DNA of 64,000 bases from an uncultured virus (IMG/VR IMGVR_UViG_3300032373_000005). Taxonomy: Duplodnaviria; Heunggongvirae; Uroviricota; Caudoviricetes. This document shows positions 3,214-62,800 of the stretch, in pieces; the first letter of the stretch is position 1, and each line of letters begins with the position of its first letter. The position numbers were made by a program, and so were the translations under genes. The notes under the pieces are model-generated. The model was given only the letters and a program-made list of their open reading frames with translations. It was not told where the DNA came from and did no database searches. The stretch lies in the IMG/VR virus record IMGVR_UViG_3300032373_000005; one strand, written 5' to 3'.

Positions 3214-3310
3214 GCTGTCTTCCTCTCGTCAAAAAGATTTGTCTGTGCCGGCGTCCACACCGGCGTTCTGGAGGAGGGAGAGTCTTTCTCCTCCTCCCAG
3301 ATGAAGAGGT

Positions 3311-4447
3311 TCATGCCGACCGCCGGAGCTGCTCGGCCTGAACAAGCGCACCGACCACCAACCCCAGCACCTCTGCGACCTGGGGGACGACGGCGTTGCC
3401 GAGCGCCTTCAGCCTGGCCAGTTCGACCTCGGGGGCTGGCGCTGTGCGGGGAGTCTCTCCCTCCCACGGTTGCCACGGGCGATCTCCCGACTTCGCCTGT
3501 GTCGACCACCCCCTCAACTGGGCGAGGAGGTCTCCTCGTCCGTTGTGCCCGGCGTCTGCGGATCGGGGTGTGGCGAATGGGTCCACCCCGGCGGGAAGCC
3601 CATGAGGAGTTCCACCCAGTCCGGGTTGAGAATACCGCCAACCTCTGTTCCCGAGCCCGTCTCGGAGGGCTCCTCGGGCGAGCTGGATGTCGGTAGCGCT
3701 GAACCGGGGAGACGGACGGCGACCGTCAGCGGCGTGCCGAAGCCGTTGCCGTTGCGCCCCTTCGCGGCCTGTTGAGACCTGCGCTCCTGCCAGGAGCGCA
3801 GGTCTTCCGTCAGATTGAACACCCCGGCGCTCGGCGTCGGCCACGCCAGCACCTGATTCTCCAGCCGCCCCTTGGGCCGCCCCTCGGCTGCGGCAATTCG
3901 ACTGGGACGGGTGCTCGCCGCCCTCGGCGTTCCCCAACCAGCCGATGAAGAACCAGCGATCGCGACGGTGCGGGGCGCCAACGGCCGCAGCGGGGATACA
4001 GTCCCAGAAACCATCGATCCCGAGCGCGGCCAGTTCCCCGAGAACGGCGGCGAGGTCTGCTCCACCGTTAGAAGCAGTGATGGCTGATACGTTCTCCAGC
4101 ACAATGAATTGCGGTCGAACCACACGCGCGATCCGGACGACTTCGTAGAAGAGGCCACTTCTGCTTCCTTTGGTGATGCCAGCCTGGCGGCCGGCGACAG
4201 AGATGTCCTGGCACGGAAATCCTGCGGTCAACAGATCGACGTGCTCCAGGTCGGGACCGACTGTCCGTACGTCGTCGTAGCGTTCAGCTTCAGGCCAGTG
4301 CCGCGCGAGGACTGCCCGGCAGAACGGCGCCGCCTCGACCTGCCACAGGGTAGCCACCTCGAGGCCCGACTCCGTGAGGCCGCGCTCCAGCCCGAGCTCA
4401 AGGCCGCCGATGCCCGAGAAGAGACCACCGATGGTGAAGGCGCTCAC
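3311..4447 (-). CDS. dcm: C5 cytosine DNA methyltransferase, alpha-type polypeptide
   Basis: Motif I LFSGIGG, IV GFPCQD, VI ENV, VIII HRRDRWF, X LGNAVVP; GTG at 4447 with GGAGG SD. Confidence 0.9.
   Translation of the reverse strand: MSAFTIGGLFSGIGGLELGLERGLTESGLEVATLWQVEAAPFCRAVLARHWPEAERYDDVRTVGPDLEHVDLLTAGFPCQDISVAGRQAGITKGSRSGLFYEVVRIARVVRPQFIVLENVSAITASNGGADLAAVLGELAALGIDGFWDCIPAAAVGAPHRRDRWFFIGWLGNAEGGEHPSQSNCRSRGAAQGAAGESGAGVADAERRGVQSDGRPALLAGAQVSTGREGAQRQRLRHAADGRRPSPRFSATDIQLARGALRDGLGNRGWRYSQPGLGGTPHGLPAGVDPFATPRSADAGHNGRGDLLAQLRGWSTQAKSGDRPWQPWEGETPRTAPAPEVELARLKALGNAVVPQVAEVLGLVVGALVQAEQLRRSA
3514..4158 (-). CDS. C5 methyltransferase beta-type polypeptide (motif IX) in an alternative frame inside dcm
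   Basis: WPTP motif and LNPDWVELLMGFPPGWT, the motif IX region missing from the main frame. Confidence 0.75.
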   Translation of the reverse strand: MASSTKSSGSRVWFDRNSLCWRTYQPSLLLTVEQTSPPFSGNWPRSGSMVSGTVSPLRPLAPRTVAIAGSSSAGWGTPRAASTRPSRIAAAEGRPKGRLENQVLAWPTPSAGVFNLTEDLRSWQERRSQQAAKGRNGNGFGTPLTVAVRLPGSALPTSSSPEEPSETGSGTEVGGILNPDWVELLMGFPPGWTHSPHPDPQTPGTTDEETSSPS

Positions 4448-59800: not shown

Positions 59801-62800
59801 GCCGCAGGCCGCGGGCATCCGCCTGCTGGCCAACACCACCGCCATGCAGCCGATGGGTCGGTCCATCCCTGGCCGGCTGCTGGATCCAGACGCGGACCTC
59901 TCGACGATCACCCTCGACGAGCTCAACGCGCTGCAGGAGGCGGTAATCGACACCGAGGCGGGCATCGCCTCGGGCCGAGACCGCACCGTCGAGCGGATGC
60001 CGCCCACGGTCGGCTACGCCCTGCTGCGCACGCTGCGCACCGCCCCCACCGCCGCCGCTGAGAAGCTGCGCGGGGCAGCGGTCGGCACCGCTGCCGGCGC
60101 TGCGCAGAAGTACAGCGAGGGGGAGATGTCGCGCAGCGCGGCGCAGAGCGCCATCGACGCCTCGGCGAAGACGGCAGCGGTGGCCGACAAGGCACTGAGC
60201 GCCGCCGCCCGCGCCGAGGCTGTCGCGCGCACCCTGGAGAAGTGGTTCGTGGTCCGCGACGACCTCGAAGGTGACATCGATCCGGGGCTGCTGGAGGTGA
60301 TCACCTCGACGATCCGCGACCTCAACGGCATCGACTATTGGGTGCGACAGGCCCAGCGCGCGGTCGTCGCAGAAGCCAAGGACAAGCGCCGCAGCTACCG
60401 GCGCAGCCACGGCAGGGCAGCGCCGGATGTTCAGCCGACGCTGCGGGAGCTCGTCGAAGACCTCGCGGGCGAGCTGACCCCGCCGCTGAGTCTGCCAAAC
60501 ATCCTCCTCCTCCCTGACATCGAGCGCCGGATCTTCGGTGTCGAGGGGGTCGGCCGCTCCGAGCTGAAGCCCTCCAAGATGGCCGAAGACATCCAGGGCC
60601 GCCTGGAGACTGGCGAGCACGCCTACCTCGACGACATCGCCGACCGGGTGTTCCTCGCGCGGGTCGCGGGCCTGCTGGCAGACGGGCCGGGCCTCACCCT
60701 CCTCGAGGAGCGCGCGCTGCATGTGCTGGACGTGGTGCTCATGGACAGCACGCGGATGGGTGACCCCCAGGCCGCCTTCCGCGAGACTGGCTGGGTGGAG
60801 ATCAGTCAGGCGCTGGCGGTGCTGTACCGGGGCGTGCGGCGCCGAGCAGCCCTCATCGAGGACCGCGGCGCAGACATCGCCAGGGCGCTGCTGGGCAGCG
60901 GGGCAGCGATCAGCGACATCGGACCTGCGACCCGCCGCAGGCTGGCGCTGGCCTTCTACGAGGGCCAGTGGGGGCACGCAGACGCGGTCGACCCGTTCAC
61001 CCTGGCCGAGGCCGGCAAGGATGCTGCGGGCGTGGAGCCGCCCACCGAGAGCGGCTGGCGCACGCTGGCGGAGTGGTCCCAGATCAAGCGGGGCACCCCA
61101 GACCCGGAGGGGCTGCTGCTGTTCGAGATGGTGCTGCGGATGCGCGGCCGGGAGATCCTCGCCGGCCTGTCGGCGGATCTGGCGCGGTACGGTCTGCGCA
61201 TCGACCGGGCAGAGCTGGAGGCGATGTCTCTGCGTCCTGCGAACGGCTACGGCGCCAAAAATGGCATCGCGGAGAATGAAGACTTCGTCAACGCCGTCAT
61301 CCACTACCTCGACCGAGAGCTGACCAACGCGATCACCGTGGAGCACGAGGGCAGCGGCGTGGCCGACCGCTACCCTGCGCCCGCGCACAACAGCCACGAC
61401 CACGACGCCTACACCGCCGCCCGCGGCATCCTCTCCCGCTACGGCATCCAGACAGGCAGGGCCGTCCCCGGCCTGGACCGGTGGAAGCTGACCACGCTGC
61501 CGGATGGCTCCGAGGTGCTGCTGCCGCAGGCGATCATCGACCTGCTCGGCGACAGCCTCGACCGCGCAGTCCCGGTCGGCCAGCTCGCCGCTGCGCTGTC
61601 GGGCGATCAGGTCGGCTACACGACCGCGGCCATCCTCGAGACCCTCTTCGGCGACGGCAACTTCACCCAGGGCATCAAGCTGGGGGTGACGGTCGGTGTG
61701 CTGGTGCCCAACCCCGCCTACTACATGGGCAACGCCATCGGTGCAATCTTCCAGCTCCAGCAGGGCCTGGGCGCCATCGGTGCCGCCCAGGCGCTGACCC
61801 GCAACCCGGCCATGCTCGCCGCGGTCGCCTGCCAGCTCTGGGGCGACGGCAGCCGCCACGACAACGGCAGCGTCGTCGTCGGCAAGGACGGCCGCATCTA
61901 CACCTCTGACATGATCGCGGAGCTGGCGGAGCGCGAGGGCCTTGACTCCAGCTTCATCGGCGCCGAGATCCAGCGCGACCTGCTCAAGGACATCCGCCGC
62001 AGCCACGGCAAGGGGCTGCGGCACCTGGCGGTAAAATTCGGTGTGGGCTGGCAGCGCAACCTCATCGAGGCAGCCAGCGCCATCGACAACGTCTTCCGTG
62101 TCGCGGCGTTCACCGACCGGATCATCGAAGGAGAGTCTCCCTCCTCCGCTGCCAGCTTCGCGCGCAAGGTCGGCTACGACTACTCCCGCCTGACGGAATC
62201 AGAGAAGTCCTGGGCGCGCAAGCTGGTGCTGTTCTACTCCTTCCTCAAGCTCAACACCGCGTTCCTGCTCGACACGCTGCTGCGCAACCCCAGCCGCGTG
62301 ATGGGCCAGTTCCGCCTGTACCGCGGCCTCACCCGCCAGCACATCGAGGACGAGGAGCCGTTCGTCGTCACCCCGGAGTTCATGGACGGCCGCCTCATCG
62401 TCGGTGCCCGCAACCTCGGCGCCCGCAACGTCCTGTACGAGACCGCCATCGCCGACCGCACCGCGCAGTGGGTCACCATCGTGCCGCCCATCCCCGCCAT
62501 CGACGGCGTCGGGCTGCTGCTCGATGTCCAGGCGAGCATCATGCCGATGGAGGAGGACGCCTGGAAGACCCTCTTCTCCCAGATGCACCCCGCCCTCAAG
62601 GTGCCCGTCGTCATGGGGCTGGGCGTCGACCCGTTCTCGGGCCGCGACATCGGATCGACGCAGCAGGTGCCCGCCTACTTCGTCAAGCTCGACCGCAACC
62701 TCACCGGCGGCCTGGTCGTCGACCAGATGCTGCGCGTCGATCCCGCCCGCAACCGCTACGGTCAGGTCGAGTTCTTGCCGGGCAAGGACGGGCAGGCGCG

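Follow-up and report, generated by a model that had tools for sequence, protein, structure and literature searches.

A CCT-repeat word enriched on one strand and evenly spaced along the DNA of an uncultured phage

Tracts of repeated CCT recur throughout a 64,000-nucleotide stretch of DNA from the uncultured virus IMGVR_UViG_3300032373_000005 (Caudoviricetes), and they raise the question of whether they follow from the encoded proteins or are kept as a signal in the nucleic acid, and in the latter case what might read it. The stretch, referred to here as the window, is part of a 74,410-base phage contig of which about 10 kb lie outside it. Its G+C content is about 68% (65-72%), and its genes, called with our own codon-usage caller and not a standard gene finder, fall into three blocks, on the minus strand at 1.9-10.2 kb, on the plus strand at 10.25-63.16 kb and again on the minus strand from 63.2 kb. 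A preliminary description had counted about 40 CCT tracts, mostly with the pyrimidines on the plus strand. We found 39 merged tracts on the plus strand and 24 on the minus strand (Table 1); the observation was confirmed and is stronger than first stated.

Abundance of the word

The octamer CCTCCTCC occurs 94 times in the window, 63 times on the plus strand and 31 times on the minus strand, whereas 100 dinucleotide shuffles gave 6.2 +/- 2.7 copies and never more than 11. When synonymous codons were shuffled within each gene, with the protein sequence and the codon usage of the gene preserved (300 shuffles), 23.0 +/- 2.8 octamers were expected on the plus strand (maximum 32) and 21.8 +/- 2.9 on the minus strand. 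The 11-mer CCTCCTCCTCC, a single copy of which contains two overlapping octamers, was found 24 times on the plus strand against 6.2 in these shuffles and seven times on the minus strand against 3.3. A codon-pair null (200 replicates), which is conservative since it was trained on the same phage genes, gave 31.5 +/- 4.2 octamers (maximum 44) and 8.3 +/- 1.7 11-mers for the plus strand, and 23.5 octamers for the minus strand. Measured by the synonymous shuffles, the excess of the octamer is about 40 copies on the plus strand and about nine on the minus strand, so that some four fifths of it lie on one strand.

The same octamer ranks first in frequency among the 24,208 distinct octamers of the plus strand. 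An unbiased scan covering every 8-mer placed the three phases of the CCT repeat at the top (z of 15.7, 13.8 and 11.8), with their reverse complements near expectation. The counts thus lie clearly above the codon-preserving shuffles that had been named as the check. The earlier proposal that selection acts on DNA or RNA and not on protein is supported by the synonymous and codon-pair nulls, by the 8-mer scan and by the codons used in runs of Ser, Pro and Leu (see below).

Shape of the word and its flank

The most common plus-strand tract is 11 nucleotides (nt) long and in one phase, CCTCCTCCTCC (15 of 39 tracts), and 26 of the 39 are at least 11 nt long. The word was observed to be sharp. Exact 11-mers (24 against 6.2) and one-mismatch matches (31 against 12.8) are enriched, and two-mismatch matches are not (62 against 53.2); thirteen one-mismatch matches lie clear of exact copies, and these are mainly tract edges. 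The 12 nt on the 5' side of the plus-strand tracts are rich in A, with 145 A in 468 positions against 82 +/- 8, and AGA is present within this distance at 17 of the 39 tracts against 4.9 +/- 2.1. Minus-strand tracts share this flank: the A fraction is 0.24 against 0.14 there and 0.31 against 0.17 on the plus strand, and AGA is found in the flank of eight of the 24 minus-strand tracts against 2.1. The A excess fades at about 18 nt upstream, and no conservation was found outside the A-rich patch within 30 nt upstream or 30 nt downstream of the tracts. The base directly 3' of the plus-strand tract is C in 20 of 39 cases.

All sixteen examples that the preliminary description had listed with flanks of the GAAGAC or AGATC type are present where it placed them. 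AGACCTC was rejected as part of the word because its enrichment mostly reflects the Asp-Leu codon pair GAC-CTC, and the enrichment of GGAGTTGG was not significant. Promoters of T7-type RNA polymerases (17-23 bp) were also rejected, as only the A-rich patch is conserved and no phage RNA polymerase was found.

Because copies on either strand carry the A-rich flank, a DNA signal is favoured over one in mRNA. An RNA element in sense transcripts would be a C-rich site at which, for example, Rho, S1 or a protein of the cold-shock/KH type lands, or else, as had been suggested, an element resembling an anti-Shine-Dalgarno sequence and pairing with ribosome-binding sites. The non-trivial copies of the plus-strand block are all in mRNA sense, those at 31414, 34374 and 38513 lie just upstream of Shine-Dalgarno sites, and three hairpins (3270/3288, 32132/32151 with a T run, and 56327/56356) join tracts to GGAGG-type partners. 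However, non-coding-strand copies have the flank as well, and local folds give the tracts no greater pairing than control sites (0.55 against 0.63). GGAGG partners up to 30 nt upstream number 18 against 7.9 (P 0.05), with no significance in other windows, so that a GGAGG excess is not clear. The anti-Shine-Dalgarno suggestion is weakened by these results, and an RNA role of any of these kinds appears improbable to us.

The length of the modal tract bears on a structural explanation, in which the complement GGAGGAGGAGG, with four GG steps, would fold as a (GGA)4-type quadruplex whenever the minus strand is single and so form a barrier or a mark. A tract of 11 nt has exactly four CC/GG steps, and two thirds of the tracts (the 26 above) reach at least this length. 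r(GGAGGAGGAGGA) has been described as an intramolecular parallel quadruplex (PMC2764455) and GGA repeats as arresting RNA and DNA polymerases in vitro (PMC2330228). Thirteen of the 39 tracts have fewer than four steps, however, and the A-rich flank has no role in such a structure. As an explanation in its own right we therefore hold the quadruplex to be very improbable; it could also be the physical basis for any other reading.

Location in genes and cost to the proteins

Twelve of the 63 merged sites on both strands are intergenic. For the plus-strand tracts alone the figure is eight of 39, with the other 31 lying within genes. Sense copies were found in all three frames (17 TCC, 6 CCT and 6 CTC), in agreement with the description of the word as frame-independent and also present between genes. 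Rare codons had been said to be forced by the word, and this was seen at 28663, 29017, 56358 and 58164 (CCT-CCT) and at 43386 (GGA-GGA), where CCT makes up 12% of Pro codons and GGA 7% of Gly codons in the phage; TCC accounts for 27% of Ser and GAG for 88% of Glu.

The codons used in amino acid runs are strongly biased toward the word. By our own arithmetic from codon usage, about 0.5 of the 28 Ser-Ser-Ser triplets would be spelled TCC-TCC-TCC, about 0.2 of the 21 Pro-Pro-Pro triplets would begin with CCT-CCT and about 1.2 of the 21 Leu-Leu-Leu triplets would be CTC-CTC-CTC; the observed numbers are 17, eight and six, respectively. By the same kind of arithmetic, Ser and Pro triplets are several-fold more frequent than amino acid composition predicts, and runs of CTG-CTG-CTG and CGC-CGC-CGC reach about three times their expectation, which indicates some general tendency toward same-codon runs. 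Homologues of the portal gene vary in, or lack, the loop, the linker and the tail in which its three copies lie. Together with the biased codons of the Ser, Pro and Leu runs, these sites indicate that the word is imposed at the nucleic acid level and placed in tolerant parts of the proteins. The orientation that predominates is costly for the genes, as it brings Ser, Pro or Leu runs and some rare CCT codons, whereas the opposite orientation gives the cheap Glu-Glu.

The positions in loops and linkers could also be expected if the tracts had no function and arose by triplet slippage or another mutational bias. In line with this, the tracts are perfect repeats, one CCT unit (3 nt) is missing at 17840 in one metagenome contig, the portal copies lie in variable loops and tails, and CTG and CGC triplets are also in excess. 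On the other hand, no other GC-rich triplet-repeat 11-mer occurs more than five times against the 24 copies of CCTCCTCCTCC, despite GCC being the commonest Ala codon. The single phase, modal length, flank, costly one-strand bias and even spacing are all left unexplained by slippage. A slippage by-product is already disfavoured, and we consider the absence of a function quite improbable.

Reverse-strand copies and the minus-strand genes

Most reversed copies were found to be of an ordinary nature, a point that goes beyond the preliminary description. Twenty of the 22 reversed octamer sites in genes read GAG-GAG, a cheap spelling of Glu-Glu. Other reversed copies are Shine-Dalgarno sites (19043 and 36342, and possibly 8200 for a minus-strand gene) or hairpin arms. 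Long reverse tracts are mildly enriched, with 17 10-mers against 9.2 under the codon-pair null. The reverse copies with a full flank (7052, 21017 and 54478) may include some true sites. The remaining 20 minus-strand tracts outside the four described singly in Table 1 (10808..62557, plus 3270) are mostly GAG-GAG codons and are spaced at random.

Some 9 kb of minus-strand genes lie in the window. The plus-strand copies there (3288, 6293, 8200, 8509 and 63874) are all of trivial kinds and occur at the background density of reversed copies. Sense-oriented tracts number two in the minus block (7052 and the hairpin arm at 3270), where the density of the plus block would, by our estimate, give about 5-6. 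Since nearly all genes are on the plus strand, the DNA strand and the sense strand are hard to separate.

These placements bear on the possibility that the word is an array of double-stranded binding sites for a phage or host protein, either a stoperator-like repressor that brings transcription to a stop or an organiser or condenser of the genome. The stoperators of the L5 repressor in cluster A mycobacteriophages are described in PMC9283540 as more than 20 asymmetric sites throughout the genome, with an orientation tied to transcription and a repressor-like helix-turn-helix (HTH) protein encoded by the phage. The window likewise has many asymmetric sites, biased toward the direction in which most genes are transcribed. 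It encodes two divergent HTH proteins of the cI/Cro type, and there is a weak lead (score 0.89, a lead only) to a DNA-binding protein like KilA-N/ORF6N. Six of the 23 plus-strand tracts at 10.2-44.9 kb lie no more than 60 nt upstream of a start codon, against 1.8 in the null (P 0.009). Stoperators, however, are complex sequences of 13 bp found in the short spaces between genes (PMC9283540), whereas the word is a triplet repeat, which would be unusual as an HTH operator. With 31 of 39 tracts in genes, 11 of them spread through one 18-kb gene, repeated stops would add little. The orientation fits transcription in the plus block, but the minus block holds the two sense tracts noted above. A binding-site array thus seems to us rather unlikely.

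The DNA uptake sequences of Neisseria and Pasteurellaceae occur about once per kb in the host chromosome, independent of frame and about equally in both orientations, and some of their inverted pairs are terminators. The word resembles them in its density of about one copy per kb, its frame-independence and the terminator-like nature of some inverted pairs. It differs in orientation, given that about four fifths of its excess lie on one strand.

Spacing of the plus-strand tracts

A second point beyond the preliminary description is the even spacing of the plus-strand tracts. The gaps between them range from 309 to 3,326 nt, with a median of 1,624 nt. Within the plus block their coefficient of variation (CV) is 0.46 against 0.96 for random placement, and none of 10,000 simulations was that low. 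Both long gaps and close pairs are avoided: the largest gap is 3.3 kb where 6.3 kb is expected (P 0.0005), and the smallest is ten times the null median of 30 nt (P 0.0005). Binned at 2 kb, the tract counts show a variance-to-mean ratio of 0.36 (P 0.0006), and the 11 copies within the 18-kb giant gene are also even (CV 0.33, P 0.0001). The minus-strand tracts, in contrast, are random-like (CV 0.87, P 0.36). A regular spacing of tolerant places such as gene ends and domain linkers could explain part of the evenness.

A median of 1.6 kb, a range of 0.3-3.3 kb and the avoidance of long gaps and close pairs are what would be expected of fixed starts of DNA fragments. Okazaki fragments of bacteria and phages are usually 1-2 kb long, which matches the spacing of the word, and primases tend to prefer pyrimidine templates. 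The plus strand might accordingly be a lagging-strand template or a displaced strand on which a primase or nickase starts a fragment every 1.6 kb or so; a primer copied from CCTCCTCCTCC would consist of purines only. The sharpness of the word, its one-strand placement, its pyrimidine template and the DnaB-type helicase encoded by the phage are consistent with such a grid of start or nick sites. Against it, the window yielded no recognisable primase or nickase, and a sequence search of PDB and the ESM Atlas with three proteins of the replication block without a known family found no primase. Known primases use 3-nt sites and have no need of an 11-mer. The skew in G and C at third codon positions follows the coding strand, so that composition gives no independent sign of one-way replication. 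We regard the priming or nicking grid as possible but doubtful.

Nick motifs of T5-like and phiKMV-like phages are localised and form a strand-specific dispersed consensus, with far fewer known sites than the word has. The word is like them in its strand-specific dispersed consensus. A wider form of the idea can be entertained with much the same doubt, namely that a quadruplex-capable (CCT)4/(GGA)4 mark placed on one strand about every 1.6 kb is a genome-wide grid of the phage's own, used by a phage factor to start, pace or protect strand synthesis, and that it belongs to a wider, so far undescribed class of phage words that are evenly spaced and strand-specific; it would then be no signal borrowed from the host.

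A possible reader of the word

An asymmetric, sharp and regularly spaced word on one strand suggests a reader that moves one way along DNA or sees only one strand. We tentatively put forward the word as a polar DNA signal for a strand-tracking enzyme, similar to Chi, as the best of the explanations considered, while accepting that it may well prove wrong. Of the roles named in the preliminary description, we likewise rank the Chi/KOPS-like one highest. The unit would be an A-rich patch, then CCTCCTCCTCC and usually a C, kept by selection on one strand, and we infer that it acts in DNA and not in RNA. The reader would be an enzyme that travels in a fixed direction along DNA or along one unwound strand, most likely a host helicase-nuclease acting at double-strand ends, of the RecBCD or AddAB type. 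Read on the minus strand, the word would be 5'-GGAGGAGG(AGG)-3' with a T-rich flank on its 3' side and would act as Chi does, switching the enzyme from a degrading to a recombination-promoting mode. In this way it would shield replication tails or packaging intermediates, in which every free end is of one polarity. If the ends were permuted by headful packaging, sites would be needed along the whole genome, which would account for the even spacing.

Several features of known Chi sites are in line with a Chi-like role. G-richness is a feature of the known Chi words, among them G(G/C)TGGAGG (10.1101/2020.08.13.249359), and the activity of Chi in E. coli depends on the 3' flank (PMC5041463); the word is likewise G-rich on the minus strand, with its flank on the side where E. 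coli Chi is modulated. Numerous Chi sites in a shared orientation are described for lambdoid phages that lack a recombination module (PMC12315714). In E. coli phage LLS the 23 sites, at one per 1.86 kb, divide into 20 against three by orientation, and in Pseudomonas phage MD8 the count is 32 against zero, Chi being its most frequent octamer (PMC12315714). The word shares with these phages its rank as the most frequent octamer, a density of about one per 1.3-1.9 kb, nearly a single orientation irrespective of genes and an abundance that codon usage does not explain. Neither a recombinase, an exonuclease nor a RecBCD inhibitor was named by Pfam or PHROGs among the open reading frames (ORFs) scanned in the window.

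A number of observations weigh against a Chi-like role. Known Chi words are 5-8 nt long, whereas the modal unit here is 11 nt plus a flank. Even spacing with a minimum distance is not predicted by Chi biology. The lack of a recombination module is a weak argument, since most ORFs have no family and the rest of the contig lies outside the window. In a variant contig with about 90% identity, a T>C change at 20958 breaks the copy at 20953. With nearly all genes on the plus strand, the signal may instead be linked to transcription, and the sole non-trivial full copy in the minus-strand block (7052) is in sense orientation, the copies there being too few to decide. The Chi sites of LLS and MD8, moreover, cluster near one genome end (PMC12315714), whereas the word is evenly spaced; theirs is also the proven or inferred 8-nt Chi of the host.

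Relatives and possible hosts

Neither megablast and tblastn against 50,697 phage records nor a single-protein portal scan of IMG/VR gave a match, and the portal homologues found are at most 46% identical. The 49 IMG/VR loci of portal relatives (9.6-22 kb each) contain zero to two matches of CCTCCTCC on the portal strand. Four such loci with 68% G+C have none on that strand, and the four closest metagenome fragments have one tract there in total. The absence of the word from portal relatives fits a host-specific word. Analogous words were sought in the portal relatives and rejected, as the over-represented 8-mers are tandem repeats inside genes. In several marine relatives (L149, L153, L159 and L163) the C-terminal part of the portal gene was observed to carry tandem repeats with units of the Met-Pro-Pro-Glu type.

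A 15-mer scan of IMG/VR returned at least 120 loci. The only word-rich locus among the matches listed, L004/G005, with 19 plus and eight minus copies in 12.4 kb, was set aside: most of its copies are short CTC-CTC runs of Leu codons that lack the flank, and tblastx showed the locus to be unrelated. Two extended 17-mers were found in 15 IMG/VR contigs, each with only one or two 11-mers in up to 20 kb; one contig of similar size and G+C with a 17-mer match (L309) is unrelated to the phage. A 17-mer scan of genome contigs gave at least 120 loci, and two Thermus loci were among the richest of the matches listed.

The density of CCTCCTCCTCC on both strands is 0.48 per kb in the window, compared with at most 0.18 in Deinococcota genomes of about 2 Mb and less than 0.02 in larger ones (121 genomes). 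Thermus is not proposed as host; the codon usage of the phage (GGC 67% of Gly, CGC 52% of Arg) seemed unlike that of Thermus. As a separate observation, Deinococcota genomes of Thermus size (about 2 Mb, for example G001 and G002) carry 110-385 copies of CCTCCTCCTCC on both strands, a density 10-100 times that of the larger genomes of the phylum when not set against codon usage. A portal profile search of the contigs of 185,579 species genomes found no prophage relatives, and tetranucleotide signatures picked out no single host. In literature searches on the word in connection with phages, or on evenly spaced phage motifs in one orientation, the signal was not described, subscription journals being outside the coverage.

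Genome context

The divergent HTH pair lies at the junction of two gene blocks and its members are candidate regulators. The PAPS-reductase-like and YAcAr/SLOG-domain proteins near the DnaB-type helicase may form a module for DNA modification or nucleotide signalling. A 435-aa (amino acid) protein in the same block may be a phage sigma factor, judging from a sequence match that falls below the cut-off. The 6086-aa protein, whose gene carries 11 of the plus-strand tracts, matched no family in its first 2000 aa. A tRNA scan of the window found none. A possible ribosome-binding site is the GGAGGAGGAG located 3 nt before the GTG at 8196, which is an alternative start codon for the minus-strand ORF 7738-8196.

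Low-complexity repeats of the GAC/ACC type, coding for Asp/Thr-rich sequence, are present at 18450-18490 and 45035-45067. Three metagenome runs from microbial mats contained the phage DNA. Their spike in depth at 17968-18634 is due to the first of these repeats, which attracts many unrelated contigs.

Table 1. Tracts of the CCT-repeat word and annotated genes in the window.
Feature	Position	Strand	Context
CTCCTCCTCC	3288..3297	+	intergenic; 3' arm of hairpin paired with 3270-3277
CCTCCTCCTCCT after GGAAGA	6293..6304	+	antisense in minus-strand gene (Glu-Glu-Glu-Val)
CTCCTCCTCC	8200..8209	+	complement GGAGGAGGAG before GTG
CCTCCTCC	8509..8516	+	antisense in minus-strand gene (Glu-Glu)
TCCTCCTCCTCC	11136..11147	+	sense, Leu-Leu-Leu frame
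TCCTCCTCCTC after A-rich run	11647..11657	+	sense, Ser run
CCTCCTCCTCC after GAAGAGATCCA	14486..14496	+	sense, Leu-Leu-Leu
TCCTCCTCC after AGAAGA	16182..16190	+	sense, Ser-Ser-Ser
CCTCCTCCTCC	17840..17850	+	gene codons 3-6, Pro run with CCT codons
CCTCCTCCTCC after AAAGAGATCC	19168..19178	+	sense, Pro-Ser-Ser-Ser
CCTCCTCCTCC after GGAAGACCC	20953..20963	+	sense, Pro-Ser-Ser-Ser
CCTCCTCCTCC after CGAAGATCC	21657..21667	+	sense, Pro-Ser-Ser-Ser
CCTCCTCC	22181..22188	+	gene codons 4-6
CCTCCTCC	24104..24111	+	sense, Ser-Ser
CCTCCTCCTCC after TAGAAGA	24947..24957	+	intergenic
CCTCCTCCTCC after GAGAAGA	26010..26020	+	sense, Thr-Ser-Ser-Ser
CTCCTCCTCC	27051..27060	+	portal gene loop
CTCCTCCTCC	28661..28670	+	portal gene linker, Pro-Pro-Pro, CCT codons
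CTCCTCCTCC	29015..29024	+	portal C-terminal tail, Pro-Pro-Pro, CCT codons; next start 44 nt on
CCTCCTCCTCC after CGAAAAA	31414..31424	+	intergenic, start codon 15 nt on
CTCCTCCTCCT	32151..32161	+	3' arm of terminator-like hairpin with 32132-32142, then T run
CCTCCTCCTCCTCC after CGAAAGA	34374..34387	+	intergenic, start codon 24 nt on
CCTCCTCCTCCTC after GGAAGACAC	35187..35199	+	sense, Leu run
CTCCTCCTCCTC	38513..38524	+	intergenic, start codon 16 nt on
CCTCCTCCTCC	40917..40927	+	intergenic
CCTCCTCCTCCTC	42526..42538	+	sense, Pro-Ser-Ser-Ser-Ser, near gene end
CCTCCTCCTCC	44710..44720	+	sense, Pro-Ser-Ser-Ser
TCCTCCTCCTC	46287..46297	+	6086-aa gene, Ser run
CCTCCTCCTCCTCCT	47782..47796	+	6086-aa gene, Thr-Ser-Ser-Ser-Ser
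TCCTCCTCCTCCT	49717..49729	+	6086-aa gene, Leu run
TCCTCCTCCTCC	50907..50918	+	6086-aa gene, Ser run
CCTCCTCCTCC after GAGAAGA	53359..53369	+	6086-aa gene, Thr-Ser-Ser-Ser
CTCCTCCTCC	54590..54599	+	6086-aa gene, Ser-Ser-Ser
CTCCTCCTCC	56356..56365	+	6086-aa gene, Pro run, CCT codons; inverted partner 56327-56335
CCTCCTCCTCC	57364..57374	+	6086-aa gene, Pro-Ser-Ser-Ser
TCCTCCTCCTCC after ACAAAA	58163..58174	+	6086-aa gene, Pro run, CCT codons
TCCTCCTCCTCC after CAAACA	60502..60513	+	6086-aa gene, Leu run
CCTCCTCC	62140..62147	+	6086-aa gene, Ser-Ser
CCTCCTCC	63874..63881	+	antisense, start of minus-strand terminase-like gene (Met-Glu-Glu)
CTCCTCCTCC after GAAGAGATCCTCT	7052..7061	-	sole full sense copy in minus-strand gene block; Pro run, CCT codons
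CCTCCTCCTCC after AAAAAGATCCG	21017..21027	-	Glu-Glu-Glu in plus-strand gene
CTCCTCCTCC	43386..43395	-	forces GGA-GGA Gly codons
CCTCCTCCTCCT after GAGAAGATC	54478..54489	-	Glu-Glu-Glu
Other minus-strand tracts 1-10 (starts)	3270, 10808, 11796, 15018, 19043, 20423, 24763, 29786, 29900, 32132	-	
Other minus-strand tracts 11-20 (starts)	36342, 41105, 45848, 46007, 46079, 46190, 46485, 56327, 59027, 62549	-	
HTH_3 (cI/Cro-like) protein, 118 aa	9812-10168	-	divergent pair
HTH_3 (cI/Cro-like) protein, 68 aa	10253-10459	+	divergent pair
DnaB-type helicase	12387-13883	+ block	
YAcAr/SLOG-domain protein	13951-14391	+	adjoins DnaB helicase
PAPS-reductase-like protein	16283-17365	+	weakly DndC-like, E 4e-6
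435-aa protein	23101-24408	+	weak sigma-70/ECF superfamily match, E 3e-7, 30 bits, cut-off 42.9 bits
Distant P22-type portal	26593-29064	+ block	
Tad2-like (Thoeris anti-defence 2) domain protein	29068-29607	+	directly after portal gene; Pfam E 3e-18
Internal virion proteins	35020-38500	+ block	
6086-aa polyvalent-type protein	44898-63158	+	C5 cytosine methylase, GNAT and two ART-PolyVal (ADP-ribosyltransferase-like) domains
Terminase-like gene	from 63155	-	

Significance

Runs of Ser, Pro and Leu and rare codons appear to have been paid for a regular 11-letter word, and something important must therefore read the DNA directionally. If the reader is a host end-processing nuclease, the word would reveal the Chi of an uncultured high-G+C mat bacterium and would extend the recently described strategy of carrying many Chi sites and no recombination genes beyond the lambdoid phages. 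If the reader is the replication machinery of the phage, the word would represent a new kind of genome-wide replication signal. In addition, the word provides an experimental handle and a possible marker for host prediction.

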